Shown here: positions 6,020 through 48,185 of the stretch, piece by piece | How positions within the stretch are numbered: position 1 is the stretch's first letter | Layout of the letters: every line of letters begins with the position of its first letter | Source of the DNA: an uncultured Chloroflexia bacterium | GTDB lineage: Bacteria > Chloroflexota > Limnocylindria > Limnocylindrales > CSP1-4 | DNA length: 64,000 nucleotides | Direction: 5' to 3' | NCBI GenBank assembly: GCA_963720755.1 | Contig: CAVRGP010000002.1 | Location: 96,001-160,000, forward strand | Notes under the pieces: generated by a model | The model's database searches: none | Told to the model about the DNA's origin: nothing | Seen by the model: the letters and a program-made list of their open reading frames with translations, nothing else | Translations under genes and position numbers: made by a program

Positions 6020-7127
6020 GTGGAAGCGTCCGCCATCCGCGACCTGGCTGAACGGATCCAGTCGACCTCGGGGCATCTTTGACCTCGAGACCAAGGAAGC
6101 CCGGGTCGCCTCGATCGAGGCGCTGACCCAGGAAGCCGGGTTCTGGGACGACGGCCGGGCCGCCCAGAAGGTCCTTCGCGAAGCGGACGGGCTGCGTTCC
6201 GAGATAGCGACATGGCGCGAGTTGCTCGTCCGTGCCGATGACCTCATCGCGGCGGTCGAACTCCTGTACGAGGGGCCGGACGCCGACCTGGAAGCCGAAC
6301 TCGAACACGACGCGGCGGCCCTCGAGACCGACTTCAAGCGCGAGCGGACCGCTCTGCTCTTCTCCGGCGATTACGACGAACGACCGGCCCTCCTGTCGAT
6401 CAGTGCCGGAGCGGGCGGGACCGAGGCGACGGACTGGACCGAGATGCTCCTCCGGATGTATCTGCGCTGGGCGGAGCGCCACCGGTTCCAGACCGAGATC
6501 CTGGACCAGCAGGAAGGCGAGCAGGCCGGTCTCAAGAGTGTCACCGTGGCCGTGAATGGCCGACGCGCGTACGGCTGGATGCGAGCCGAACGAGGGGTGC
6601 ATCGTCTCGTCCGGATCAGCCCGTTCGACTCGCAGAACCGACGCCAGACGACGTTCGCGCTCGTGGAAGTCCTGCCCGAGGCCGAGGACGATGTCGAGAT
6701 CGAACTCGACTGGGACCAGATCCGGGTCGACACCTATCGCTCCCAGGGGGCCGGGGGTCAGCATGTGAACAAGACCGATTCCGCGGTCAGGCTGACCGAT
6801 CTCAAGACGGGGATCGTCGCCCAGAGCCAGAACGAGCGGAGCCAGACACAGAACAAGGAGATGGCCATCAAGGTCCTCAAGGCGCGGCTCCTCGAGCGCG
6901 CGCTCGAGGAGAAGGAGGAGGCGGTGCGCCAGCTCAAGGGTGAGCACGTCGAGGCCGGCTGGGGCAACCAGATCCGAAGCTACGTCCTCCACCCGTACCA
7001 GATGGTCAAGGACCTGCGGACCGGGTATGAGACCGGCAACACGGGGGCCGTCCTCGACGGCGACCTCGACGCATTCATGCAGGCAGAACTCGAGCGGGTG
7101 ATCGGCGAGGAAGCGGTCGCCACGTGA
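6020..7127 (+). CDS. prfB: Peptide chain release factor 2, with programmed +1 frameshift
   Basis: GTG at 6020 reads to CTT TGA C (6077-6083). The +1 frame continues into an ORF with the SPF and GGQ motifs. Confidence 0.96.
6070..6083 (+). promoter_or_regulatory. prfB +1 frameshift site (GGGG-CAT-CTT-TGA-C)
   Basis: Canonical CTTTGAC slippery stop with a short internal SD-like GGGG. Confidence 0.92.
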
Positions 7128-8104
7128 CCTCGGCCCGCCGGTCGGAGGGGATCGCCGACCGGCCATCGATCCGACCGGTCACACCGGACGAGTTGACGAT
7201 CTGCGCCGATGTCCTCCGCACGTCGGTGAACGACTACACCGGCCGCCTCGGCCAGCCCGAGATGCCGCCCGACTCGGCTGCGGTGGTCCGCCTGTTCGGA
7301 CACCTCCATTCGACCGATCCGGACCGATTCGTGGTCGCCACCGTTCCCGGGGCTGGGCCCGAGGGCGAGCGGATCGCGGGTTTCGCCTCCGCCTACGTCC
7401 GGGAGGACCTGTGGTACCTGGCTATGCTCTTCGTGCTACCCGGATCCCAGGGTGCCGGGCTGGGACGCCGGCTGTTCGCCCGGGTGGACGCAGTCGATCG
7501 ATCGATGCGTCGCGGCGTGGCCACAGACAGCGCCCAGCCGATCTCGAACGCGATGTACGCCGCCGAGGGCCTTGTCCCGAGGATGCCGCTGTTCAACCTC
7601 TCCGGGTTGCCGCGGCAGGTGGACGCATTTGGGGCGCTGCCGTCCGGGGTCACCCCGCTGGCGTTCGATGAGATCGCCGCGGGCGCGCCCGATGGCCAGG
7701 GTCACCGCATGCTCGTCGACGCGATCGACGGGATCGACCGCGCCTGCCTGGGCGTCGCCCACCCGACCGACCATCGCTTCCTGAGGCTGGAGGACCGGCA
7801 TGGTTGGTTGTATCGGGGCGCGGACGGGACGCCCGTCGGATACGGCTATGCCGGTGAAGCCGGGCGCATCGGGCCGATCGCCGTCGTCGATCCGGCGCTC
7901 GTCGCCCCGGTTATCGGACACCTGATGACGGCCGTCGTTCCGCGTGGAGCGTTCGCCCTCTGGATCGGTGGCGATGCCGACCGAGCCATGACCGCTGCGC
8001 TCCGGGCGGGTCTTCGGACCGATCCGTTCCCGGTCCTGGTGGCGTGGGATCGCCCCTTCGCCGACTTCTCCCGCTATCTGCCGCGGTCGCCCGGGCTGCT
8101 CTGA
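7124..8104 (+). CDS. GNAT-family N-acetyltransferase (probably tandem GNAT domains)
   Basis: Acetyl-CoA motif LFVLPGSQGAGLGRRL; GTGA overlap with prfB. Confidence 0.8.
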   Translation: MTSARRSEGIADRPSIRPVTPDELTICADVLRTSVNDYTGRLGQPEMPPDSAAVVRLFGHLHSTDPDRFVVATVPGAGPEGERIAGFASAYVREDLWYLAMLFVLPGSQGAGLGRRLFARVDAVDRSMRRGVATDSAQPISNAMYAAEGLVPRMPLFNLSGLPRQVDAFGALPSGVTPLAFDEIAAGAPDGQGHRMLVDAIDGIDRACLGVAHPTDHRFLRLEDRHGWLYRGADGTPVGYGYAGEAGRIGPIAVVDPALVAPVIGHLMTAVVPRGAFALWIGGDADRAMTAALRAGLRTDPFPVLVAWDRPFADFSRYLPRSPGLL

Positions 8105-33903: not shown

Positions 33904-35418
33904 CTAGGTCCCGGCCCGCCGTCCGATGACCCGGGTGAGCTGGGTCGCATCCTGGCCATCGATGTACTCGAGGTCGTAGCGTTCGGCCAGCATCGCCACC
34001 TCGCGTGGATCGACCCGGATCACGTAGACGGGTCTCTGTCCCAGGTTGGTGTCGATGACGTCCGTCAGCGATCCGAGGTCCTCGTCGAGGCGGGTCCGAT
34101 CGTCCACGATCGAGATGTCCGGGCGTTGGCCCAGGACGCGCTGGCGATACCAGAGCGGCGTCGAGTAGCTCCACCAGCTGACGATGACGCTGTCAGGCTC
34201 CATGACCGCCAGGGCGTGGTCGGCCCACGTATCGGCGTCATGCCTGTGACTCATGTCGATCGCAGCGGACCGAGCCGGGATGGCCGCCACGGTCGGCAGC
34301 AGGAGGGCCACCCCGACGACCGCGGCGATGGTCCGCGTCCTGATCGTCGGGGCCGTCGCCCTCTCGCCCATGAACGCACCGATCGCCTCGACGACGACCC
34401 CGGCCAGGATGGCCAGCCAGGTCCAGGCCATGAGCGCCGGCCCGACGTAGTAGCGGGAGATGTCGGCGTTCACGTAGGACGCCGCGAAGAAGCAGGTGAT
34501 CCCCGCCGCGGTGCCGGTCAGCAGCGCATAGCGAGGCTGGCGGATCGCGGTCACCACGAAGGCGACCGGGATGGCCGGCGCGAGGAGTCCGAACTGGGCG
34601 ACGGCGAGACCGACCAGATCGCCGAACTTGCGCGGCAGGTCCCCGAACGGGTCGAGGAGGCTCCCCTGGAACTGTTCGGCGAAGACGATGTACCGGAACC
34701 CGTCCCAGGTATCCGGTCGACCGTACACGAGGGCGGCCCGGAACGGACCGGCTCGCAGCGGCAACTCGAGATAGACGACGACGAGGGTGATCGCGAGCGC
34801 GGCGACGCACCCGGCGACCAGTCGTCCACGGCGCCAGATCCCGGGATCGACGGCCAGGACGTACAACCCGACCGGGACGGCGAGCAGGACGGTCAACGAG
34901 TGATTGCCGAGCGCGAGGGCGAACACGACCGCGGCGCCGATGAGGTACCGGTCGGACCGTTCCGCCCGTCCATCGCCGTCCCACGCGACCAGCAACCAGA
35001 GCAGGATGGCGACGAACGCGAGATGCAGTGAGTGGGCCTCGGCGTGGGTCGCGATCGACCAGGCGATGGGGGTGAGGGCCATGGCGATCCCGGCGGCGAT
35101 CCCGATGGCCAGCCAACCGGTCAGGCGTCGAACGAGGTCGACGCTGACCCCGGCCGCCACCGCCAGGCAGACCGCCGACAGCAGGTTCATCCGAAAGGCC
35201 GGCTCGCCGAACGCCTGGAAGGCGACGGACGCGAGCCAGCCGATCAGCACATAGGTCGGGAACCCGGTCGGATGGGCGGTTCCCATGAGCGGGCCGACCG
35301 CCTGCAGTTCCGCGGTGTCCCAGAAAGCCAACCCGGGGAGCAGGGTGAACCAGGCGGCCGCGAAGGCGACGGCACCGACGAGCATGGCGGCGAGGAGGCG
35401 GATCCGACCCTGGTTCAC
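33904..35418 (-). CDS. DUF2723 (TMEM260-like) GT-C glycosyltransferase
   Basis: WDTAELQ...AHPTGFPTYVLIG signature, AEAHSLH and multiple TMs; GTGA overlap with the upstream gene. Confidence 0.8.
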   Translation of the reverse strand: MNQGRIRLLAAMLVGAVAFAAAWFTLLPGLAFWDTAELQAVGPLMGTAHPTGFPTYVLIGWLASVAFQAFGEPAFRMNLLSAVCLAVAAGVSVDLVRRLTGWLAIGIAAGIAMALTPIAWSIATHAEAHSLHLAFVAILLWLLVAWDGDGRAERSDRYLIGAAVVFALALGNHSLTVLLAVPVGLYVLAVDPGIWRRGRLVAGCVAALAITLVVVYLELPLRAGPFRAALVYGRPDTWDGFRYIVFAEQFQGSLLDPFGDLPRKFGDLVGLAVAQFGLLAPAIPVAFVVTAIRQPRYALLTGTAAGITCFFAASYVNADISRYYVGPALMAWTWLAILAGVVVEAIGAFMGERATAPTIRTRTIAAVVGVALLLPTVAAIPARSAAIDMSHRHDADTWADHALAVMEPDSVIVSWWSYSTPLWYRQRVLGQRPDISIVDDRTRLDEDLGSLTDVIDTNLGQRPVYVIRVDPREVAMLAERYDLEYIDGQDATQLTRVIGRRAGT

Positions 35419-36872
35419 CACCCGAGGATCCGGCTCCACAGCACGCCCCAGGCATTGATCGCGATGGACACGACGATGAGGCTCATTCCCGCAAGCATGC
35501 CCCATCTGTACCGAAGGACCATCCGCTCGAACCCCAGCGCAACGAGGAGCAGCGCGAACGGTGCCGCATCGTTGCTGAAGCGGTAGCCGAACTGGACCCA
35601 TCCCTGACTGAAATGCATCAGGTCGACCAGGACGATGAGCCCCACGGCGATCACCGCGCCTGCCACCAGCCGCCGGCGCCGGAACGCGAACATCGCCGGG
35701 ATGGCCAGCAGGTAGGCCGGACTCGTCAGGAGGACGCTCATCCCGGTGGCGCGCGGGAGGGCGAGGGGGCAGGCGATGTCGAACAGGCCGCGACCGGCCG
35801 AGGGGTCGACGCAGACGGCGACGGGCGCGACCCCCAGGCTGTCCGGGAGCACGGTCGGGAGCAGGTCCGGTGTCCCGAACAGGGCGATCCCGAGGTTCTG
35901 GACGGCGTAGCGGACATCCTCGATCGCCCAATCGGCGTGGTAGCCGAGGGCGGGATAGCCGGCGACCTCGAGCCGGTAGAGGTAGTCGTACGCGGGATTG
36001 GTCAGGTGGCCGGTGCTGACGAGCGTGTAGGCGAGGAGGATCCCGATCGGGATGGCCGCCCCCAGACCGGCCGACCAGGCTCGCCGCCGCCACGCTCCGC
36101 CGGCCCCGACGAAGATGAAGAACGGCGCTCCGAAGACGACGGTGAGCCGTGCCGTGCAGGCCAGGCCGAACAGGAACCCGGCCACGAACTGGCGTCGGTC
36201 GACCCGAAGCCTCGGGCCTGGCCGCGATGCGGCCGTCCCGGCCTCGAGGCCCGTGACGGCGCCCGGGTCGTCGCGGACCGCCAGGCCGATCGCGAGGAAG
36301 GCCAACCCGACAGCGACGATATGGGCCTGATACCAGGTCGTCGCCTGTTGGGCGGTGTACCAGAAGACGGTCCCGAAGGCGAAGAAGACGGTCGTGCCCA
36401 GCCGGACCGCCGTCCCGACCGGGAGCCGGCCGATGGCCCACCAGCAGATCGCGATATCGAACGCTGCGATGACCGTGTAGATGGCCTGGGCGTTGGTGGC
36501 GAGGCCCCACATCGCGACGAACGGCAGCAGGAGGAGCGCCGGGAGGGGTGGGAACGGGAGCAGGCCCCGCGGGATGCCGTCCGAGGTGACGATCGGCAGG
36601 ACGTCCTGGAAGTCGACGTTGCCGAACACGCCGTCGCCGGCGACCGGGTATCGGATCGCGGCGTGGCCCTCGAGGAACGCAGCGGCTTGCCAGACGAAGT
36701 GGTCGTACTGGCGGGCCGAGTAGCTCAGACCGTAGACGGCCAGGGCCGCGAGCACGAGGAGCAGACCGACCACGATCGCCGCCGTTCGGGCGACGTCAGG
36801 GCCGATCGGGATCTCCGTATCGAGGTACGTTTCGGGGCCCGGCGGGCGACCCTGTGCTACGCTCCGATCCAC
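35415..36872 (-). CDS. Polytopic membrane protein, probable GT-C glycosyltransferase (start uncertain)
   Basis: Motifs HFVWQAAAFLEG, PFPPLPALLLLPF and GWVQFGYRFSND; many TMs. Confidence 0.65.
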   Translation of the reverse strand: MDRSVAQGRPPGPETYLDTEIPIGPDVARTAAIVVGLLLVLAALAVYGLSYSARQYDHFVWQAAAFLEGHAAIRYPVAGDGVFGNVDFQDVLPIVTSDGIPRGLLPFPPLPALLLLPFVAMWGLATNAQAIYTVIAAFDIAICWWAIGRLPVGTAVRLGTTVFFAFGTVFWYTAQQATTWYQAHIVAVGLAFLAIGLAVRDDPGAVTGLEAGTAASRPGPRLRVDRRQFVAGFLFGLACTARLTVVFGAPFFIFVGAGGAWRRRAWSAGLGAAIPIGILLAYTLVSTGHLTNPAYDYLYRLEVAGYPALGYHADWAIEDVRYAVQNLGIALFGTPDLLPTVLPDSLGVAPVAVCVDPSAGRGLFDIACPLALPRATGMSVLLTSPAYLLAIPAMFAFRRRRLVAGAVIAVGLIVLVDLMHFSQGWVQFGYRFSNDAAPFALLLVALGFERMVLRYRWGMLAGMSLIVVSIAINAWGVLWSRILGW

Positions 36873-36901
36873 CTTCCACGCTCGTGCAGGAGCCGTTCCC
36901 G

Positions 36902-39900
36902 GTGACTGGCCCCCAGACCCGCGGGACCGAGCGAGACACACGAGCGCCGTTGCCGGTTACCGGGACGCAGGGAGCCGTCGGCGCGGTCCTCGTGGTCCTC
37001 GCGCTCGGACTCGTCCTCCGACTCATCATCGCATACCTCCTTCCCGGGTCCGGATTCGAGGTCGATCTGGGGGCGTTCCGATACTGGGCGTCGAACCTAG
37101 CCTCGGAGGGACTCAACGGGTTCTATGCCCGCGACTTCTTCCACGACTACACGCCCGGCTACCTGTACGTGCTCTGGCTCGTCGGTATCGTCGGCAACGC
37201 GGCTGGGGGCGTCGGTGACCTGATCAAGCTTCCGCCCATCCTGTCCGACCTGGCGATCGGCTGGCTCGCCTGGTCGATGGTCCGGGAGCTTGGTGGGCGG
37301 GACCGCCTGGCCCTCGCCGCGGCCGCGGTGGCGGTGCTCAACCCGATCTCGTGGTTCGACAGCGTGGTGTGGGGTCAGGTCGACTCGTTCGGCGTCGTCT
37401 TCCTCCTGCTCGGGCTGCGCGAGCTGTGGCGCGACCGACCCGAGCGGGCCGCGATATTCACCGTGATCGCCGCGGTCATCAAGCCCCAGCTCGGGATCCT
37501 CATCCCGGTCGTGGCTGTCGTCACCATCAGGCGAGCGCTCTGGCCGGCCGGCGGCCACGGCGACCCGGCCCGGACCGGACGCCCGATCCGCATCCTGACG
37601 ACCGGCCTGGTCGGGTACATCACCGCCGTCGTGGTCTGTTTCCCGTTCGGCCTGTCGGTCATCGAGCTGAGCAGCCAGGCGCCCTATGTCTCGTCCGGGC
37701 TGCTCCAGCAGGTGGCGGTCGCCGCCGGCGGCTACCCGTACCTGACGGTCAATGCCTTCAACCCGTGGGCGCTGGTCCCGTCCGACCTGGGACAGAGCCT
37801 CGCCAACGCGGGCCTGTGGGTATGCGATTACGCGGGGACCGCCCAGGACTGCGGGGCCGGGACCGCGGTGTTCGGCCCGATCCCGGCGGTCGTCATCGGG
37901 ACGACCCTCCTGCTCGCCGCGATGGCCGTGATCCTCGCGGTCATCGCCAGGCGCCCGGACCGGCTGACGTTGCTCGTCGGGATGGCCGTCCTGGCGCTCG
38001 CCTTCTTCGTCGTCCCGACCCGCGTCCATGAGCGCTACGGCTACCCATTCTTCGCGATGGGCGTGATCCTGGCCGCGATCTCCCTGCGCTGGCGGATCGC
38101 CTACATCGTCCTGTCGGTGGCGACCTTCGCCAACATGTATGTCGTCCTGACCACGCTGTACCCCAACAATCCGTCGATCGCGGACTGGCTCGGGCTGGGC
38201 CCGGCGATCCGATCCGAGGCCGGCGTGGTTGCCGTGTCGGTGCTGCACGCGGTGGCGTTCGCGTGGGCGTTCGTCCAGCTGCGTTCGGACGCCCGAGCCC
38301 GGTTGGCGGAGGAACTGGTGGACGCCTCGACCGTCGACGTGCCGGAGCCAACGGACGACATCCCGGCCGGCCTGCCATCGCCGGAGGACCGGGCCCTTCG
38401 ACCGACGCCGGCGTCGAGCTCCCCGGTCGTCGTCGCCACGATGCCCACCTGGACGCCGCGCCCGAGCTTCGAGGAGGTCGGCATCCTCGGCTGGTTCAGG
38501 GCCCGTCTCGCCGACCCGCCGATCCGGCCCGACCGGAGCTCGACCCTGCGCTCGGAAGGCGGTGGACGGCTCGATCGACTCGATCTCTGGATGGTCGTCG
38601 TCCTCGTCATCGGCACGATGCTCCTGCGCACGTATCGGCTGGAACAGCCGTACCAGATGCATTTCGACGAGGTCTACCACGCCCGGACGGCCACCGAGTT
38701 CCTCCAGGATTGGCGGTACGGGCTGTCGCACGATATCTATGAGTGGACCCATCCGCATCTCGCCAAGTACCTGATGGCCGCGGGGATCGTCGCGTGGGGT
38801 GGGGACCATGTCGGCGCCACCAGCGAGCTGGGTGTCCCGGTCGTGGACGCGGTCGTCGAGCCCCGCCGGCTCGACCAACTCTCGCCGGGAGGTCGTGCCG
38901 GCGAACGGCTGTACGTCGCGACCGGCACCGAGGTGCGTGCCTACGACCTGCGCAGTCGGGAACTGGTGGCGGTCATCACCGCCCCGGGAGCGGTCAGCCT
39001 CGCCATCGACGAATCGGCTGATCTCCTCGTCATCGGCGGGTCGGACGGGCAGTTGAGCACGGTCAACCTCTTCGACATCGGCCAGTACAGGCTCGATAGC
39101 GACCTCAAGCCGATCGAGGTCGCCAACGTCGGTCACCCGATCGATCACCTCGTCGTCACTGACGATGGGTCGACCGTGGTCGCCGCGTCCGACGAACGGC
39201 TGACGGCCGTCGATCCGTTCGACGGGACGATCCACGGTTCGATGGATCTTCCTGGCATCGCCGACCTGTCGCCGGGTGGGACAGGATCGGCGATCGTCGC
39301 CAGCGTCGACGATGTCGGCGACCCGACCGCGGCCGCCTCGGCGCTGGCTGCCGTGATGGCGACCAACGGGTCGGCCGATGCCGAGGCGAGCCTCGCGGCC
39401 GACTACGAGACGCGTCTGGCGGGGGCAGCCTCCGGAACCACGGTCGTGCTCGGGGATCCGGGCAGCGGTGATGTGCGGACCGCCCTGGACGACGCGATCG
39501 CGGCCGGTTCGCTGCCGGGTATCTCGGTCGGGAGCGTGTCACGGATCGCCGCTGCGACGTCGGACGGCGTGGCCTTCATCGACCCCGCCCGCGTCTCCCT
39601 GGTCACGACCATCCTGCTCGACGGCGGTGCGCACGGGCTGGCGATGGTGACCGGCCTGGACGATCCGAAGATCTACGCGACGTATGGCGATGCCGCGGCC
39701 CCCGGCTACCAGGTCATCACCGTCGGAGGTGCTCAGGCGGATGCAGGACCGACCGCCGGCAGTTCGCACCCATTACCGGGGCTCGGCTCCCTCGTCACCT
39801 ACGACCCTGCCAGCCAGATGGTCCACATCCTGGGGCACGCCCCGGCCCCCGCCGGCGACGCCTGGACCGTGTACGTGGTCGAACCGCACGGCAACGCGGT

Positions 39901-42298
39901 CTTCGCCGATGCCCGGCTTCCTGATGGGTTCACGCCGTCGGCATGGGGTTCTGACTTCAACCCGGAGTACCCCTCGGAGGATCGGCAGCAGATCCTGGTC
40001 TTCGACCACGCTGGGGCGTCGGCCGCGATCGACGCGGGATCCCACGCCTTCGCCTGGCGGCTGCCCGGCGTCATCGCCGGGGCATTGACCGCCGCCCTGC
40101 TCTACCTCCTGACTCGGATCCTGTTCCGCCGCAGACTCGTGGCCGGCCTCGTGGCGCTCTTCGTCATCGCCGACGGCATGTTCTTCGTCCAATCCCGGAT
40201 CGGCATGAACGATGTCTACGTCGGGCTGTTCATCGTCGCCGCCTACACCCTGTTCGCGATGGTCTGGACAGGTTGGTGGCGAGGCCGCTCCGCGTTCTGG
40301 CTGGCCATGCCGGTCATCGGGGTCCTGCTCGGGCTGGCACTGGCCAGCAAGTGGGTCGCGGCCTATGCGATCGGCGCCCTCGTGCTGCTGATCCTCATCC
40401 GCAGCGCGCTCGGTCGGGTGCTCGCCATCCTCGGCATGATCGGGATCACGACGGTCCTGGGCTACATGGCCATCAGCGTCGCCGCCATCGAGGGCGGGCC
40501 GGACCCCGGGTTCGGGAACCTGACCTTCCTGCTGATCATGATCGCGCTGACTCTGCTGGCCGTCGTCGTGGCCGTCGTCCACCCGATCGCCTGGACCGAC
40601 GACGAGATGCGTTTCGCGGTCGGAGCGCCGGCCGTTCTGGGGGCATTGGTCTTCTTCGGGGCCGTCGGGACGGGTCGGATCGATTCGACGATCGCCATGG
40701 GGCCGCTGACCGTCACGCCGTTGCTCATCGCGATCGCCCTCGGGCTCGGATCGGTGGTGGTCGCCGTCCTGTTCTTCCTCGGTGGACGGATCGGGTTCGG
40801 TCCCCTGGCGTCTCCACCGGCCGACGACGACCCGATCCGGCTGCTCGACCCGCCCGGCACGCCCCCGGATGGCTGGCTCCGGCCCGGCTGGCTGTTGGGC
40901 CTGCCGGTCGTGTGGGTGGCGATCTGCATCCTCATCCTGCCGCTCGCCGTGTATGTCATCACCTACATCCCGTGGGCCCTCATCGAGAACCACCAGATCG
41001 TCCCTGGCTGGCCGCCCGGTCACACCGGCCAGACCCTCCTCGACCTGACGGGGCAGATGTACGGCTATCACAACGGCCTGACGGCGGCGCACCCCGCGTC
41101 CTCGCCCTGGTGGGCCTGGCCGATGAATCTGAAGCCGGTCTGGTTCTACCAGCAGAGTCTGGCGGCCGGAACGTCGGCCGCGCTGTACGACGCCGGCAGC
41201 CTGGTCATCTGGTGGATGAGCATCCCGGCGATGGCGTTCGTCGCCTACATGGCGTTCAAGCGGCGGAGTCTGGCCCTGACCCTCATCGCGATCGGGTTCG
41301 CCGCCCAGTGGATCCCATGGGCGCGGATCGATCGGGCCGCCTTCCAGTACCACTACTACACGTCGTTGCCGTTCCTGGTGATGGCCCTGGCCTACTTCGC
41401 CGCCGAGCTGTGGCACGGCGCCTCACGGCACACCTGGGCGCTGGCCCGGGCGGCCGGTGCCATCGCGATCGTCGCCCCGGCCGGCCTGTGGATCCTCGAC
41501 CGGCCCCTCTGTGCGATCGTCGGCGTCGACTCGGTCAACCCGGGCTCAGCCGCCTGCCCAGCCGTGATCCCGGACTTCGTTCTCACGGCCAGGACCGCCG
41601 GCCTGGCCCTGGTCGTCGGGATCGGTCTGATCATCATCATCCGGCGGTTCCTCGCGTTCGATCAGGCTGACGATGGCAGTGGCGACGGGGGCCAGCTCAC
41701 GGAGGCGTTCCGGTCACTCGTCTGGACCGGCCTGGCCGTCATCGCCGGATTGATCGTCGTGGCCTTCCTGCCCGACACCCCGATCCTGGTCCTGACCAGC
41801 GTCCCGGTGGAGCCGATCGCGCTGATCGTCGCGATCCCGCTCGGGTTCCTCGGCCTGCAGGTGTTCGCGTCAAGAGACGCACATCGGTTCGTGGTCGGTC
41901 TCGGCGTCGCGGTCGTTGCCTGGTTCGCCATCCTGTACCCGAACATCAGCGCCCTGCCGCTGCCCGCTGCCGTCGTCGCGGCGTACCAGGGCATCCTGCC
42001 GACCTATCTGTACGCCTTCCAGTTCCCGGTCAGCACGGTCACCCGGGCGACGGACACCCCCCTCCTGACGCCCATGCTCCTGGTCCTGCTGATCGCCCTG
42101 ACAGTGACCTGCCTGGTGGTCGCCTATTCCGCCTGGGTCTGGCGACTGACGCTGGCCGAAGCGAGAGCCGCGTCGGTGCCGCCGACGGATCCGACGCGTC
42201 CGCCGGCCCGGACGACCTGGCCCGGACCGGCAACGCCTGAGGGACGGCGGCCCGGAAGTCCGGCGGCAGCTGCCCGCCGGCCGCGAGACGGCGGATGA
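36902..42298 (+). CDS. Giant GT-C fusion: mannosyltransferase-like domain plus PMT-family protein O-mannosyltransferase with a large extracytoplasmic insert (true stop probably 42240)
   Basis: N-domain: DYTPGYLY, DSVVWGQVDS, KPQ, HERY. PMT motifs: FDEVYH, THPHLAK, FAWRLPG, SRIGMNDVY, SKW, HPASSPWWAWP, YHYY. Confidence 0.82.
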   Translation: MTGPQTRGTERDTRAPLPVTGTQGAVGAVLVVLALGLVLRLIIAYLLPGSGFEVDLGAFRYWASNLASEGLNGFYARDFFHDYTPGYLYVLWLVGIVGNAAGGVGDLIKLPPILSDLAIGWLAWSMVRELGGRDRLALAAAAVAVLNPISWFDSVVWGQVDSFGVVFLLLGLRELWRDRPERAAIFTVIAAVIKPQLGILIPVVAVVTIRRALWPAGGHGDPARTGRPIRILTTGLVGYITAVVVCFPFGLSVIELSSQAPYVSSGLLQQVAVAAGGYPYLTVNAFNPWALVPSDLGQSLANAGLWVCDYAGTAQDCGAGTAVFGPIPAVVIGTTLLLAAMAVILAVIARRPDRLTLLVGMAVLALAFFVVPTRVHERYGYPFFAMGVILAAISLRWRIAYIVLSVATFANMYVVLTTLYPNNPSIADWLGLGPAIRSEAGVVAVSVLHAVAFAWAFVQLRSDARARLAEELVDASTVDVPEPTDDIPAGLPSPEDRALRPTPASSSPVVVATMPTWTPRPSFEEVGILGWFRARLADPPIRPDRSSTLRSEGGGRLDRLDLWMVVVLVIGTMLLRTYRLEQPYQMHFDEVYHARTATEFLQDWRYGLSHDIYEWTHPHLAKYLMAAGIVAWGGDHVGATSELGVPVVDAVVEPRRLDQLSPGGRAGERLYVATGTEVRAYDLRSRELVAVITAPGAVSLAIDESADLLVIGGSDGQLSTVNLFDIGQYRLDSDLKPIEVANVGHPIDHLVVTDDGSTVVAASDERLTAVDPFDGTIHGSMDLPGIADLSPGGTGSAIVASVDDVGDPTAAASALAAVMATNGSADAEASLAADYETRLAGAASGTTVVLGDPGSGDVRTALDDAIAAGSLPGISVGSVSRIAAATSDGVAFIDPARVSLVTTILLDGGAHGLAMVTGLDDPKIYATYGDAAAPGYQVITVGGAQADAGPTAGSSHPLPGLGSLVTYDPASQMVHILGHAPAPAGDAWTVYVVEPHGNAVFADARLPDGFTPSAWGSDFNPEYPSEDRQQILVFDHAGASAAIDAGSHAFAWRLPGVIAGALTAALLYLLTRILFRRRLVAGLVALFVIADGMFFVQSRIGMNDVYVGLFIVAAYTLFAMVWTGWWRGRSAFWLAMPVIGVLLGLALASKWVAAYAIGALVLLILIRSALGRVLAILGMIGITTVLGYMAISVAAIEGGPDPGFGNLTFLLIMIALTLLAVVVAVVHPIAWTDDEMRFAVGAPAVLGALVFFGAVGTGRIDSTIAMGPLTVTPLLIAIALGLGSVVVAVLFFLGGRIGFGPLASPPADDDPIRLLDPPGTPPDGWLRPGWLLGLPVVWVAICILILPLAVYVITYIPWALIENHQIVPGWPPGHTGQTLLDLTGQMYGYHNGLTAAHPASSPWWAWPMNLKPVWFYQQSLAAGTSAALYDAGSLVIWWMSIPAMAFVAYMAFKRRSLALTLIAIGFAAQWIPWARIDRAAFQYHYYTSLPFLVMALAYFAAELWHGASRHTWALARAAGAIAIVAPAGLWILDRPLCAIVGVDSVNPGSAACPAVIPDFVLTARTAGLALVVGIGLIIIIRRFLAFDQADDGSGDGGQLTEAFRSLVWTGLAVIAGLIVVAFLPDTPILVLTSVPVEPIALIVAIPLGFLGLQVFASRDAHRFVVGLGVAVVAWFAILYPNISALPLPAAVVAAYQGILPTYLYAFQFPVSTVTRATDTPLLTPMLLVLLIALTVTCLVVAYSAWVWRLTLAEARAASVPPTDPTRPPARTTWPGPATPEGRRPGSPAAAARRPRDGG

Positions 42299-43392
42299 CG
42301 AAGCCGTAGTAGTCCTCCACCTTGGCCGTCACCCGCGGCCAGCTGAATTCCTCGGCCCGGACGCGTCCGGCGGCGCCCATCTGCGCCCGAAGGGCCGGGT
42401 CGTCGAGCAGGCGCCCGATCGCGCTGGCGAGCTCCTCGGGTTCCCGGGGCGGGACGAGCAGTCCCTCGCGGCCGCGTCGGACGACGCCCTTGTACCCGTG
42501 GATGTCCGAGGCGACGATCGGGGCGCCGGCGGCCATCGCCTCGAGCAGGACGATCCCGAACGACTCGCGACCCGTCGCCGGCGCGACGTACACGTCGGCG
42601 GTCCGGAAGAGCTGCGCCTTCTCGGCGTCGGTGACGCGTCCCAGGAACTCGACCGCCTGCAGACCGCGGGTCGCGACGTACCGGCGCGCCTCCCGCTCCT
42701 GCGGGCCGGAACCGACGACCAGGAGGCGATCGCGGTAATCCGGCCTTGCGGAGGATCCGATGTGCCTTCAGCAGGTCGAGCAGCCCTTTGCGTGGCTCGT
42801 GGCGACCGACGAACAGGACATTGGGCGTGCCGTCCTGCCAGCGGGCGACCGGCACCGCTCCCGCGAAGCGGGGGATATCGACGCCGTTGGGGATGACCTT
42901 GTAGTCGCCGGGGAAGAACCGGTCGATGAAGTGCCGCGCGGCGGCACTCACGGCGATGCGGCCGTGGAGCTTGGCCGCATGTCCCTTCATGACCCGGCTG
43001 CCCAGCTCGTAGGACGGAGAGAAGCCGGCATACGCGTGGAACGTGGCGATGTTGACACTCTTCGATTCGCGCAGCAGGAAGAGCGACAGGAAGGGGACGA
43101 ACGGTTCGTGGAGATGGAGGACATCGAAGCGTTCACGCGCGAGCAGCTCGCGGACCTGGCCGAGATACCGCGGTGAGAAGGTCAGCGTCCCGATCGAGCC
43201 ATTGAGCGGCACGCTGAAGCCCACGCCGATGCGCAGGATGTCACCCTCGGAGGCGCGTTGCGGGCCGTGGCTGGCAGTGATGATGCGGACGTCGTGGCCG
43301 GCCAGCCGGAGGTTCTCGTACAGGTGACGGACATGCTGGGCGACCCCGCCCGCCTCCGGGTAGATGTACGGACAGACCAGGCCGATCTTCAT
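42124..43392 (-). CDS. pimA: PimA-like GT4 phosphatidylinositol alpha-mannosyltransferase, with two compensating 1-bp frameshifts in this sequence
   Basis: N-terminus MKIGLVCPY..GGVAQHV, then LHLHEP, ATFH, GRIAVS, IPNGVD and EPRKG. The C-terminal ESFGIVLLEAMAAG motif lies in a shifted frame after about 42738. Confidence 0.78.
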   Translation of the reverse strand: MKIGLVCPYIYPEAGGVAQHVRHLYENLRLAGHDVRIITASHGPQRASEGDILRIGVGFSVPLNGSIGTLTFSPRYLGQVRELLARERFDVLHLHEPFVPFLSLFLLRESKSVNIATFHAYAGFSPSYELGSRVMKGHAAKLHGRIAVSAAARHFIDRFFPGDYKVIPNGVDIPRFAGAVPVARWQDGTPNVLFVGRHEPRKGLLDLLKAHRILRKAGLPRSPPGRRFRPAGAGGAPVRRDPRSAGGRVPGTRHRRREGAALPDRRRVRRAGDGSRVVRDRPARGDGRRRPDRRLGHPRVQGRRPTRPRGTARPAPGTRGARQRDRAPARRPGPSGADGRRRTRPGRGIQLAAGDGQGGGLLRLRHPPSRGRRAAAAGLPGRRPSGVAGPGQVVRAGGRVGSVGGTDAALASASVSRQTQAE

Positions 43393-44210
43393 CGACTCGG
43401 CCCATCCCCGGGACCGGGCGCCATGAACCGGGGAGGTCGCTGACGACCGCCCGGATAGCCATGATCGCGACCGGTCCCGTCGCGTCGGATCCGCCCGATG
43501 ACCTCGTCGCGGGCGTCGCGGCTGCGTTTCCGGAGCTGCTGTCCGAACGTGCCGAGCTGGCCGACCGTGGCGTGGAACGTGCCGCCATGCTCGGTCGTGC
43601 CGGCGAGGATCGCGCGCCGAAGGTCGTCGGCGTCCTGTCCGGCGAACGTCGTCCAGCCCGTCCCGATGGCCTCGAGTGCGTGGGCATCGCTGTTGCCGAG
43701 GTGGGCGAGACCGTGATCGTCGGCGAAGCGCACGACCCGACGATGGAGTGGCCGGCCGAGGCTGGTCGGGTTGAACGTCTCGAGTCCATCGGGGTGGGCG
43801 CCCGGGTCAGGATCATCGAGGAGCCGACGAAGGGTCCAGGCCTGTGCGCACAGCGGATATGGGACGAGCGGGTGCGCCGGGATCGCCAGCCCGCCGGCAT
43901 CGTGCACGGCGAGGATCGTCGTCCGCATCGATCGGTACGGGCGGATCGGGCGGTCCAGGAAGAGCCCCAGCAGATGACCGCCAAGGGTCGTGATCTCCTC
44001 GCCGACCACGACGTCGACCCGGAGTCCACGGTCCCGGGCCATCGACCGAGCCGCGACGGCGGCATCGATCCGCTCATGGTCGGCGATCGCGATGACGTCG
44101 AGGTCGGTCTGCCCCTCGACGTGCTCGAGGATCTCCTGGATCCCGGCCGTGCCGTCGCTGGCGAGCGTATGGATGTGGAGGTCGGCCCGACCGAGGCGAT
44201 CGATGGTCAT
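43389..44210 (-). CDS. PHP-domain phosphoesterase
   Basis: Motifs DLHIHTLASDG, IADHE, GEEI, GHLL, AHP and NSDAH; start and stop overlap neighbours on both sides. Confidence 0.88.
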   Translation of the reverse strand: MTIDRLGRADLHIHTLASDGTAGIQEILEHVEGQTDLDVIAIADHERIDAAVAARSMARDRGLRVDVVVGEEITTLGGHLLGLFLDRPIRPYRSMRTTILAVHDAGGLAIPAHPLVPYPLCAQAWTLRRLLDDPDPGAHPDGLETFNPTSLGRPLHRRVVRFADDHGLAHLGNSDAHALEAIGTGWTTFAGQDADDLRRAILAGTTEHGGTFHATVGQLGTFGQQLRKRSRDARDEVIGRIRRDGTGRDHGYPGGRQRPPRFMAPGPGDGPSR

Positions 44211-45160
44211 GCCGCGACCCCTGCGTCGGCGAGGCCCGGGTCGGATCCAGCCTCGAGATCCGGCCAGATCGGGAAGAAGATGGCCCACCATTGGTCGGGC
44301 GCGTCGGCGATGAGGTCCTCGAACGCGGCCGCGAGATTGAGCATCGTCGCCATCACCCGCTCACGGCGAGTCCCGGACGTCGGCACGTCGATCGGGAGGA
44401 TCCGACCCCGGTAGGAGCCGGACCCGGCCCGTCGAACGGCCATCCCGTAGACCGGCACCCCCGCTTCGACCGCCAGGATGGCCGGACCCATCGGCAGCAT
44501 GGCCGGGGACCCGAAGAGCGCGATCGGCGTCCCGCCGCCGGTCAGGTCCCGGTCGCCGACGAGACCCACCGGGATGCCCTCGCGCAGGGCGTCGATGAGT
44601 GCCCGTCGAGCTTCCCGCAGACTGACGAGGCGGACCCCGTGCACGCCTCGGGTCCGTTCGAAGTACGCCTGGACCCCGGGATCGTCCACGGTCTCCATCG
44701 GGATCACCGTCGAGCCAACGCGAAGCGCGAAGTAGACGACCGGCAGTTCAAGCGACCCGAAGTGAAGACCGACGAACAGGACGGCCTGGCCCGGCTTGAC
44801 CGCCTCCTCGATGAGCTCAGGCGTATCCAGCTGCAGGCGTTCGTCCACGTATTCCCGCGTGATCGCCGGCGTCCGGGCGACCTCGAGGTAGTAGCGGGCA
44901 GCGTGGCGGAAGGACGATCTGACGAGCCGCTCGAGTGCCTTGGGGTCGGTCGCCGCCGCCCGGACCCGAGCACTTCCGCGACCGGAACCCGCCAGCGACC
45001 GACAGACGCGCCGAAGGTTCCGTCGTGCCTGGTCGGCGCGGCGCGGTGCCAGCCGGTACCAGACGTCACCGGCCAGATCGGCGACGCGCATCAGCGGTCG
45101 TTCGGGCAGCCGGCAGGCGAGCCACGACATGGCCAGCAGGAGGCGGCCCCGGACGGTCAC
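44207..45160 (-). CDS. PatA-like (lipid A/PIM) acyltransferase, copy 2
   Basis: Motifs ARYYLE, LHFGSLE (HX4E), LVGDRDL and PDQW. Confidence 0.82.
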   Translation of the reverse strand: MTVRGRLLLAMSWLACRLPERPLMRVADLAGDVWYRLAPRRADQARRNLRRVCRSLAGSGRGSARVRAAATDPKALERLVRSSFRHAARYYLEVARTPAITREYVDERLQLDTPELIEEAVKPGQAVLFVGLHFGSLELPVVYFALRVGSTVIPMETVDDPGVQAYFERTRGVHGVRLVSLREARRALIDALREGIPVGLVGDRDLTGGGTPIALFGSPAMLPMGPAILAVEAGVPVYGMAVRRAGSGSYRGRILPIDVPTSGTRRERVMATMLNLAAAFEDLIADAPDQWWAIFFPIWPDLEAGSDPGLADAGVAA

Positions 45161-46242
45161 CCGGGTGTCGCCTCGGTCGATCCGTCGACCCCCGTGGGTG
45201 CCGTGGAGGCGGTCGCAGACGCGTCGCCGGGTGTCCGGCCCGGTCCCGGGTCGGGTACGCCCGACTGCATCATCCTGGCGCGGACTTCGAGTTCCGCCGC
45301 TTCGCCGGGGTCGTCCGGCCACATCGGCTTGAAGCTGTACCACTGATATGGGGCGACCCGGATCGCATCGGCCAGTGCATCGGCCATCGCCTGGCTGGCG
45401 CGCTGCAGCTCGGCCGGGTCGCTCGACGGCACGTCGATCGGATCGCGGAACTCGAGGGCGAACGTGCCGTCAGCCTTGCGGTGGATAGCGACCGGCAGGA
45501 TCCGCGACCCCGTCTTGGCCGCGAGTGTCGCCGGTCCAGCCGGCAGCGTCGTCCAGGCATCGAACAGGCGCACCGGGATGCCATCGCTGCGATAGCCCCA
45601 GTCGATCAGCAGACCGAGCATCTCGCGGCGTCGGAGCACCCCGAAGATCGCCCGAAGGTTGCGCCATGGAACGAGGTCGAAACCCCACGCCGCGCGTTGC
45701 CGGCGGAGCAGCTCGAACAGCTCCGGGAATGACGAGTCATCGGCCACGACACTGACCTTCAGGCCGAGTCGCGCGACCGCCGCCGCGATCGCTTCGTTGC
45801 TGCCGATATGAGCGGCCGTGAAGATGAGCCCGCCGGTATTCGATCCATCGCGGATCCGTCGCAGGTCGTCCTCCAGCCGGTCGAGGTCACCGGCCAGCCG
45901 CCCGACCTCGTCCGGCGTCAGCGATGGCAGGCGCATCAGTTCGACGAGGTACCGGCCGTATTCGCGATAGGCATGAAGCGCGAGCGCACGCACCCGACGA
46001 TCGTCGGGCGAGATCCCCAGGACGTGCCCGAAATTGTCGTTCGACCACCGTCGTCGTGCCGGCCAGGCGAGGTACGACCCCTGTGCCAGGAGCCCGACGA
46101 CGACGGCTGCGGGCCCGGCCGGCAGGACGCGCAGGAGCCACGCCGTCGCCCGATAGGCAACGACGGCCGTCCGTTCGACGATCCTCGGCCGAGCCCCGCC
46201 TCGGCGGTGTGGCGCCTCGAGCCGTTTGTCGGCGCTGGTCAC
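45157..46242 (-). CDS. PatA-like (lipid A/PIM) acyltransferase, copy 1
   Basis: Motifs [28 protein letters not shown] and [11 protein letters not shown]. Confidence 0.82.
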
Positions 46243-47492: not shown

Positions 47493-48185
47493 TTACTTGG
47501 ACGGGATGTGGGAGGCCGACTTGGCCTGGCTGCGGACGTGGAGGATCCGCTGGATGACGGTGATGATGGAACCGATGGTGATGATGCCCAGGGCGAGGAA
47601 CAGGGCATCCACGCCGAGCGGGGTGGCGAGACCGCCAGCACCTGCCCCATCGGGGATATCCCAGCTGGCGCCGAGGATCCCGGCGAGGACGAGGCCGAGA
47701 CTGAGGATGATCAGGCGCACTTCCCGTGGCATGACGCCGACGGCCGCCATCCCGGTCCCGGCCGTGAAGCCGAGCCCGTCGGACTTGGCCCGTGTATAGC
47801 TGACCATGACGGCCGATCCCATGGCCGCAGCGGCCCATAGCGTGCCGTCGGCGACGCCGACCGCCTGCAGTCCGGCGACGATCCCGATGTAGACGACCAC
47901 TTCACCGGCCCGATCGAACACGCTGTCCATGAACGCGCCGAGGTTGCTGACCTTGCCGGTCGCCCGGGCCAGCGTGCCATCGAACATGTCGAAGACGCCG
48001 CCGAGGAACACGACGAGGCCGCCGAGGAGCCAGAGCTGCGCGGCGACGAGGACCGCACCGACGACCGTGATCCCGAAGCCGATGAGCGTCAGCCCGTCCG
48101 GCGTCAGGCCGAGGCGGCCCATCCCGAGCGCGATCGGCTCGAAGACCTTCTTGATCCGGCCACGGGACTCGTTGGAGATCGTCAT
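47493..48185 (-). CDS. pgsA: CDP-alcohol phosphatidyltransferase, probable phosphatidylinositol-phosphate synthase
   Basis: Motif DMFDGTLAR...GAFMDSVFDR, plus MVSYTRAK; adjacent to ino1. Confidence 0.85.
   Translation of the reverse strand: MTISNESRGRIKKVFEPIALGMGRLGLTPDGLTLIGFGITVVGAVLVAAQLWLLGGLVVFLGGVFDMFDGTLARATGKVSNLGAFMDSVFDRAGEVVVYIGIVAGLQAVGVADGTLWAAAAMGSAVMVSYTRAKSDGLGFTAGTGMAAVGVMPREVRLIILSLGLVLAGILGASWDIPDGAGAGGLATPLGVDALFLALGIITIGSIITVIQRILHVRSQAKSASHIPSK

Follow-up and report, generated by a model that had tools for sequence, protein, structure and literature searches.

A PHP-family metallo-phosphoesterase as a candidate phosphatidylinositol-phosphate phosphatase in an inositol-lipid operon of Limnocylindria (Chloroflexota)

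We analysed a 64,000-nucleotide stretch of DNA (hereafter the window; positions 96,001 to 160,000 of contig CAVRGP010000002.1, assembly GCA_963720755.1) from an uncultured soil bacterium of the phylum Chloroflexota, class Limnocylindria. Our subject is a gene for a PHP-family metallo-phosphoesterase that lies in an inositol-lipid operon and whose product is a candidate for the phosphatase that converts phosphatidylinositol phosphate (PIP) to phosphatidylinositol (PI). The source genome comprises 3.0 Mb in 15 contigs and is 93.6% complete; the G+C content of the window is ~70%. The operon consists of six closely packed genes on the minus strand, in the order PIP synthase (PIPS), ino1, acyltransferase 1, acyltransferase 2, PHP and pimA:

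47493..48185, minus strand: PIP synthase (CDP-alcohol phosphatidyltransferase), operon gene 1; PF01066, 47.9 bits
46239..47477, minus strand: ino1 (myo-inositol-1-phosphate synthase); PF01658, 120 bits; TIGR03450, 528.7 bits, below the cut-off of 638
45157..46242, minus strand: PatA-like acyltransferase 1; PF03279, 90.7 bits; NF005919, a phosphatidylinositol mannoside (PIM) acyltransferase model, 123.5 bits, below the cut-off of 209
44207..45160, minus strand: PatA-like acyltransferase 2; PF03279, 103.7 bits; NF005919, 123.3 bits
43389..44210, minus strand: PHP-family metallo-phosphoesterase, candidate PIP phosphatase, 273 aa; supported by the PHP_C match, motifs and structure model
42039..43392, minus strand: pimA-like family 4 glycosyltransferase (GT4, mannosyltransferase) with one frameshift; PF13439 (N-domain), 80.5 bits

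The genes from ino1 to pimA are joined by four consecutive 4-base overlaps (GTGA, GTGA, ATGA and ATGA), of which the two GTGA overlaps form the junctions of ino1 with acyltransferase 1 and of acyltransferase 1 with acyltransferase 2; PIPS and ino1 are separated by 15 bases. Acyltransferase 2 likely starts at the GTG at 45160, overlapping the stop of acyltransferase 1, while its longest open reading frame (ORF) begins at 45343. The ATG of the PHP gene overlaps the stop of acyltransferase 2, and its own stop overlaps the ATG of pimA. The translational coupling of PHP between the acyltransferases and pimA, proposed in an earlier reading of the sequence alone (the sequence-only reading), is thus borne out by an ATGA overlap at both junctions. 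Pfam and NCBIfam scans of the six operon ORFs likewise agreed with its statement that PHP is the sole phosphatase-like gene among them.

In bacteria and archaea, PI is made through PIP. For the PIP synthase of the window, the top-scoring NCBIfam models were archaetidylinositol-phosphate synthase, at 126 bits, and PIP synthase, at 110 bits, neither of which reached its cut-off; the protein could be aligned to the RsPIPS and MtPgsA1 structures. According to the excerpts consulted of Clarke et al. (PMC4634129), R153 and R191 of RsPIPS (R155 and R195 in MtPIPS) bind the phosphate of inositol phosphate. The window protein keeps these phosphate-binding arginines in an RxxR motif (P-R154-E-V-R157) and in Q-R213, at the places of RsPIPS R153 and R191. 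Since the arginine pair of PIP synthases is kept, PIP is the expected product and a phosphatase is needed.

That phosphatase had been presented as unassigned, which does not hold for Bacteroides, the one genus for which it is known. The excerpts consulted of PMC4634129 (2015) and PMC9246714 (2022) describe the actinobacterial PIP phosphatase as unidentified, and those of the latter paper report BT_1525 (PIPPh), a member of the PgpA family, as the PIP phosphatase of Bacteroides thetaiotaomicron (Heaver et al. 2022). Our literature search returned no later assignment of the step and no paper tying a PHP protein to it. The PHP fold and family and the PIP-to-PI step were known already; new is the predicted pairing of the two.

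The ORF of the PHP gene is intact, as had been noted: it runs on the minus strand from the ATG at 44210 to the TGA stop at 43389-43391 and encodes 273 aa, and an identical 273-aa gene call (P0001) is present in the protein collection. The motifs read from the sequence earlier were all recovered (HIH at residues 12-14, DH at 44-45, GEE at 70-72, AHP at 112-114 and SDAH at 174-177), together with an SDG motif at residues 18-20. The protein scored 50.7 bits against PHP_C (PF13263; cut-off 21.3) and 19.7 bits against the general PHP model (PF02811; cut-off 26.4). An AlphaFold2 model built from a 45-sequence alignment had a mean pLDDT of 92.4 and a pTM of 0.89, and Foldseek matched it with probability 1.0 to the PHP proteins 3e38, 7ug9, 2anu and 9etk, which places it in the distorted (beta/alpha)7-barrel fold of the PHP superfamily. 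The top structural matches, at 16-25% identity, were 3e38 and 2anu (uncharacterised PHP proteins), 7ug9 and 9etk (RNase AM) and 7rty (PsfC).

PHP enzymes use a centre of two or three metals to cleave phosphoesters. In a set of 98 sequences (68 operon-linked, 21 outgroup and 9 from a paralog subclade), residues D10, H12, H14, D19, H45, E72, H113, E144, N147, D175 and H177 are invariant, and H79 is invariant except in one of the 21 outgroup rows. As the metal-ligand residues are invariant, the active site of the window protein is intact. Behind the barrel, the model shows a helix (residues 215-238) followed by a basic tail. In operon-linked proteins the part behind SDAH has a median length of 94 residues and a net charge of +6 beyond the first 35, compared with 70 residues and +3 in unlinked ones, and many orthologues have a C-terminal helix with abundant Arg and Trp. 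Such a basic helix and tail would fit binding to an anionic membrane surface.

Existing annotation names no lipid function for the close homologues of PHP: the public names, from Candidatus Limnocylindrales bacterium and Chloroflexota bacterium, are 'PHP-associated domain-containing protein', 'predicted metal-dependent phosphoesterase TrpH' and 'hypothetical protein', and the matches in the ESM Atlas are clusters of 'hypothetical protein' from Chloroflexota only. In line with the public names, the organism belongs to Chloroflexota and is not an actinobacterium. The best NCBIfam models were the CehA/McbA metallohydrolase domain (NF038032, the top match with 56.8 bits, cut-off 80), RNase RNM and nucleoside bisphosphate phosphatase, all scoring below their cut-offs. 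A Pfam scan of the protein gave no match to PgpA (PF04608) or to the inositol monophosphatase family IMPase (PF00459). Among the structural neighbours, TM0559 (2anu) and BVU_3505 (3e38) have the same compact PHP core without an insert (Foldseek E 6e-12 to 1e-9; target-normalised TM-score to 2anu_A of 0.74), but share only 16-18% identity with the window protein and are both uncharacterised.

The closest characterised relatives are RNase AM/TrpH (YciV) and Cv1693 (7ug9 and 9etk for RNase AM; 2yb1 for the 3',5'-nucleoside bisphosphate, or pAp, phosphatase), which share the PHP fold and the N-terminal DLHxHT..SDG, DH, E, HP and SDxH motifs, but are 19-25% identical and act on RNA or nucleotides. 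They raise the question of whether PHP might hydrolyse a nucleotide by-product of the operon (GDP from PimA, CMP from PIPS) or pAp and so ease product inhibition, a role also compatible with the association of PHP with GT4 genes in three separate contexts. In the mycobacterial operon, the flanking genes Rv2613c (HIT) and Rv2609c (Nudix) could presumably play a similar part. However, the corresponding NCBIfam equivalogs score far below their cut-offs (47.1 versus 375 bits for NF047791, 31.9 versus 400 for NF041577), with the match limited to PHP residues 36-103. The ~80-residue insert that separates the two halves of RNase AM-type proteins is also absent: in a profile search of PDB sequences, profile positions 90 to 93 span chain residues 86-170 of 9etk and 90-176 of 7ug9. 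Moreover, if the substrate were a nucleotide, three-gene operons like that of the metagenome locus L270 described below would hold no gene for the obligatory conversion of PIP to PI. We therefore regard this explanation as unlikely.

With moderate confidence, we favour the PHP gene product as the PIP phosphatase of this operon, a prediction made from sequence and supported by the expected product of the synthase, the position of PHP as the only phosphatase-like gene of the operon, the conservation of that position, a two-gene PHP-PIPS arrangement, a fusion to a PimA-like domain, the grouping of linked PHPs on a tree and the PimA-like sequence of the operon GT4 (the last five are described below). 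In the pathway we propose, Ino1 would supply inositol phosphate, PIP synthase would join it with CDP-diacylglycerol to PIP, and PHP would cleave the remaining phosphomonoester to give PI, which PimA would mannosylate before the two PatA-like enzymes acylate the product. PHP would be a soluble or peripheral multi-metal phosphomonoesterase that strips the inositol-ring phosphate from PIP at the cytoplasmic face of the membrane, docking through its basic C-terminal helix and acting before PimA. The gene, its fold, its intact set of metal ligands and its conserved place in the operon are established here, and we infer from them its substrate, its action ahead of PimA and its attachment to the membrane by the basic C-terminal helix and tail. 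One may further speculate that the hydroxyl freed by PHP is required by the second acyltransferase. The source genome, at its 93.6% completeness, has no PgpA (PF04608), which we count in favour of PHP as the PIP phosphatase.

We compared the position of PHP within the class using 80 loci from named genome records, found with a 13-sequence alignment and all belonging to close Limnocylindria relatives. In every one of the 74 Limnocylindria-type loci with enough flank, pimA lies directly downstream and an acyltransferase directly upstream of PHP; PIPS and ino1 were each present within 5 kb in 58 of 59. Among the best 29 loci of a phylum-wide search, pimA is downstream of PHP in all 29 and an acyltransferase upstream in 27 of 28. 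A PHP homologue (E<=1e-10) occurs in 266 and a PIPS-like gene (E<=1e-15) in 271 of 301 sampled Chloroflexota genomes, tallies that include five unpublished genomes and paralogous matches. The CDP-alcohol transferase that the PIPS query found in family f9 (loci L152, L188 and L189) has ftsK on one side and lgt on the other and is probably PgsA, so that the figure of 271 overcounts true PIP synthases.

Two sets of 20 loci from the phylum were then distinguished by how they had been chosen. The first was a biased choice, in which the PHP and PIPS lists pointed to the same contig: PHP adjoins PI genes in all 20, and 18 run in the order ino1, acyltransferases, PHP, pimA, PIPS, with PIPS at the opposite end compared with the window; in one locus (L122), ino1 had no match in the fetched flank. 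In the second set, PHP matches were taken regardless of PIPS and four proved to be operon-linked (L137, L145, L148 and L149). PHP was found inside a PI cluster in the class families f1-f3 and in 17 other Chloroflexota families, 16 of which (f5, f14, f15, f17, f18, f21, f26, f27, f28, f34, f36, f42, f45, f56, f58 and f67) have it between an acyltransferase and pimA, with PIPS shifted to the opposite end as above.

The seventeenth family, f23, shows a reduced arrangement, with PHP directly upstream of a PIPS-type gene in 10/10 fetched loci. The pair was first met in L119 and L126, the other two loci of the biased set; eight more loci were alike, including that of genome G138, whose PIPS had fallen short of the threshold used for the tally. 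The best NCBIfam models for its PIPS-type gene are those for PIP and archaetidylinositol-phosphate synthases. An ArsR-type regulator and an NYN-domain protein flank the pair, and a search of the fetched flanks of the 10 loci showed neither ino1 nor an acyltransferase nor pimA; ino1 lies elsewhere in the genome in all five genomes tested.

This pair bears on a further explanation, that PHP is a soluble inositol-phosphate phosphatase, either IMPase-like or responsible for the unidentified MshA2 step on glycosyl-inositol phosphate. The presence of ino1 in the same operon speaks for such an activity, as does the fact that PHP enzymes include small-molecule phosphomonoesterases, e.g. histidinol-phosphate phosphatase (2yxo, a Foldseek match). 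Yet such an enzyme would break down the very compound that its own operon makes for PIPS, the source genome already holds four IMPase-family genes, all outside the operon, and the f23 pair has PIPS with no ino1 or GT4 nearby. The operon GT4 also does not suit an MshA pathway: the intact 415-aa PimA of a relative (L034) matches the mycobacterial PimA structures 4n9w and 2gej over its full length with 216 bits, and the operon GT4 reaches only 78 bits with MshA (3c48) against 216 bits with 4n9w. Judged by sequence similarity, it is PimA-like and not MshA-like. Taken with these points, a soluble inositol-phosphate substrate seems to us quite improbable.

A profile search for longer PHP proteins uncovered a fusion family of 600-717 aa (P0356-P0361 and P0373, P0356 being found on 15 contigs), for one cluster member of which NCBI gives the name Gaiellales. 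In these proteins a PimA-like GT4 domain, with EX7E kept, comes first and is followed by a C-terminal PHP domain. This order is opposite to the gene order in Chloroflexota, and the fusion is therefore not a read-through artefact. In the metagenome locus L270 (6142-10115), a three-gene operon consists of PIPS, ino1 and a 705-aa fusion, the GT domain of which gave no PF00534 match at E<=1e-3; the flanking genes, an AI-2E transporter and a UDG-family gene, are unrelated. The complete PIPS-ino1-fusion operon was seen in this locus only, and in L273 ino1 lies ~2 kb upstream of the fusion.

A separate search with the single protein had yielded 82 long proteins. Almost all of them are singletons whose matches to PHP and a neighbouring gene are patchy and gapped, and we rejected them as frameshift read-through; only the GT4-PHP family from the profile search is counted as a fusion. 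In the closest named relative (L032, PHP 92% identical), ino1 (6756-7993) matches in three pieces in different frames, and comparable breaks occur in several further loci of the same assembly series (L095 and L109), which suggests that these are indel-rich long-read assemblies. Assemblies of this kind explain many of the apparently fused gene calls among the 82 long proteins.

The close partnership of PHP with PimA leaves room for another lipid substrate, namely mannosyl-PIP, if PimA acts first, or phosphatidylglycerol phosphate (PGP). In every full operon PHP adjoins pimA, and another lineage has PHP fused to a PimA-like domain. Related PHP clades, too, follow directly on GT4 genes that score best with the NCBIfam model for GlcNAc-phosphatidylglycerol synthase (146-185 bits, far short of the cut-off of 480). 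Set against this are the f23 loci, where PIPS is the sole partner of PHP in 10 of 10, and the fact that characterised PimA takes PI as its acceptor. Action on one of these other head-group intermediates is accordingly, in our estimate, improbable.

The GT4-linked copies just mentioned are five unlinked PHP genes from families f52, f15 and f4, each with a GT4 gene immediately upstream (L146, L207, L192, L201 and L211; coordinates of the neighbouring pairs are 9278-12013 in L146, 6786-8638 in L192 and 6790-8993 in L201), and in f52 a VTT/DedA gene stands beside the pair. The source genome itself has a second PHP paralog outside the window (G000:C2:56351-57127), which is 34% identical to the operon PHP and overlaps a downstream UPF0104/LPG_synthase_TM (MprF-TM/GpgF-type) gene by 4 bases:

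G000:C2:55177-57127 (locus L231, 5177-7128): second-paralog pair, PHP and UPF0104/LPG_synthase_TM

The two genes stay together in 27 of 30 Limnocylindria loci. According to the excerpts consulted of PMC12713373, GpgF, a putative flippase encoded in the glucosaminyl-phosphatidylglycerol (GlcN-PG) operon, belongs to UPF0104. As PHP thus occurs in three lipid contexts (the PHP-pimA arrangement and fusion, the GlcNAc-phosphatidylglycerol-synthase-like GT4, and the UPF0104 pair), we tentatively raise the possibility, doubtful as it is, that this PHP branch consists of general peripheral phosphatases of phospholipid head-group phosphates in Chloroflexota and some Actinomycetota. If so, its members would supply the dephosphorylated acceptor (PI, perhaps phosphatidylglycerol from PGP) to a lipid glycosyltransferase or flippase and would replace PgpA/B/C-type enzymes. 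Among the unlinked PHP loci examined, a lipid-head-group context was found in a minority (6/40).

We also placed the PHP proteins on a quick maximum-likelihood tree (IQ-TREE, 104 rows), from which ORFs shorter than 200 aa and 7/8 of loci L032-L111 were excluded. All 65 operon-type linked rows fall into one group of 79 (SH-aLRT branch support 88), and the linked label changes 5 times on the tree versus a mean of 31 in shuffles. The 14 unlinked rows of this group belong to f31, f32 and f20, which have PI operons without PHP, and to second copies of f27 and f45, which form a subclade with f8 and f44. The unlinked clades of f13, f52, f9, f33, f4 and f22 fall outside the linked group. Family f13 has such an outside-group PHP; ino1 was present in 5/5 of its genomes searched for it, and 15 of its 18 genomes had no PIPS at E<=1e-15.

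Several results weigh against PHP as the PIP phosphatase. The evidence is gene context throughout, and among the 98 aligned sequences we found no specificity signature, with the catalytic residues identical in paralogs unlinked to PI genes. In 40 PIPS-centred loci, chosen where no PHP match adjoined PIPS in the phylum lists, 35 (20 families) have pimA beside PIPS, mostly also with ino1 and acyltransferases, and operon-type PHP was found in none of them. A PHP homologue (E<=1e-10) is present in 0/7 genomes of f30 and in none of the f19 genomes G021, G033 and G096; these genomes have PI genes, and another PIP phosphatase must therefore exist in the phylum. Neither of the two control genomes, Corynebacterium glutamicum (where ino1 is present) and Bacteroides thetaiotaomicron, yielded a match to PHP_C. 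Besides its four IMPase-family matches, the source genome has five PAP2 matches outside the operon. The substrates of RNase AM and the pAp phosphatase, the nearest characterised relatives, and the wider linkage of PHP to GT4 genes than to PIPS count on the same side.

As to clade-specific positions, the differences from the paralogs are confined to D38, T75, G152, G7, G210 and P253, of which none is obviously substrate-binding. In three of the PIPS-centred loci (L159, L165 and L173), a distant PHP paralog lies 0.3-8.5 kb away, and five of the 40 contain a CDP-alcohol transferase alone. PHP homologues of the genomes with PHP-less operons, if any, are located elsewhere. In 12 PHP-less loci, 43 ORFs around PIPS were scanned with Pfam, and no other phosphatase was found among them.

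These data also qualify the sequence-only reading. Its assignment of PHP to the PIP-to-PI step gains from the PIPS arginines and the retained linkage but has to be narrowed, as PHP is not a general bacterial solution and PI operons without it exist.

That about half of the sampled PI-operon families have no PHP in the operon, and that PHP homologues occur in 266/301 Chloroflexota genomes, many of them unlinked, could also mean that PHP is a housekeeping phosphoesterase or nuclease travelling as a passenger. Against this, the linkage is retained in three or more gene orders and, across lineages, in a fusion, and PHP shares 4-base overlaps with both of its neighbours. We consider a passenger highly unlikely.

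Compared with known systems, the operon resembles the early PIM operon of mycobacteria and corynebacteria, which we take to be pgsA1-patA-pimA, in holding PIP synthase, a PatA-type acyltransferase and PimA together, with PimA similar over its full length; in contrast, the window operon also holds ino1, a second acyltransferase and PHP. The mycobacterial and corynebacterial case stays unsolved by PHP, since the Corynebacterium control has no PHP_C match. BT_1525, according to the excerpts of PMC9246714, lies in an inositol-lipid cluster with myo-inositol-phosphate synthase and PIP synthase and performs the step proposed here for PHP, but it belongs to the PgpA fold and family (PF04608), which is unrelated to PHP. 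If PHP is indeed a PIP phosphatase, the two would represent non-orthologous replacement, and PHP a second, unrelated solution to the conversion of PIP to PI. It would further give the PHP superfamily its first lipid substrate, complete a PI and acyl-PIM pathway in Limnocylindria, an abundant uncultured class of soil and freshwater, and imply an actinobacteria-like glycolipid envelope outside Actinomycetota.

The last gene of the operon, pimA, is broken in the window by a frameshift near 42738-42742, and its C-domain with the EX7E motif lies in another frame: residues 1-218 and 219-394 of an intact relative's PimA align to the window in two different frames. Relatives carry intact genes of 415-424 aa, so the break is not a feature of the lineage; it is probably an assembly error or strain-specific. 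In close-relative soil-metagenome contigs, base 42742 is missing in three of four short-read runs (one contig each, depth 3-7). Convergent with the end of pimA, a plus-strand gene (36854-42298) encodes an 1814-aa membrane protein with PMT/PMT_4TMC (GT-C) domains, and adjoining it on the minus strand (33904-36510) is a second GT-C protein (TMEM260-like/PMT_2). This GT-C block beside the PI operon may serve lipoglycan or protein mannosylation.

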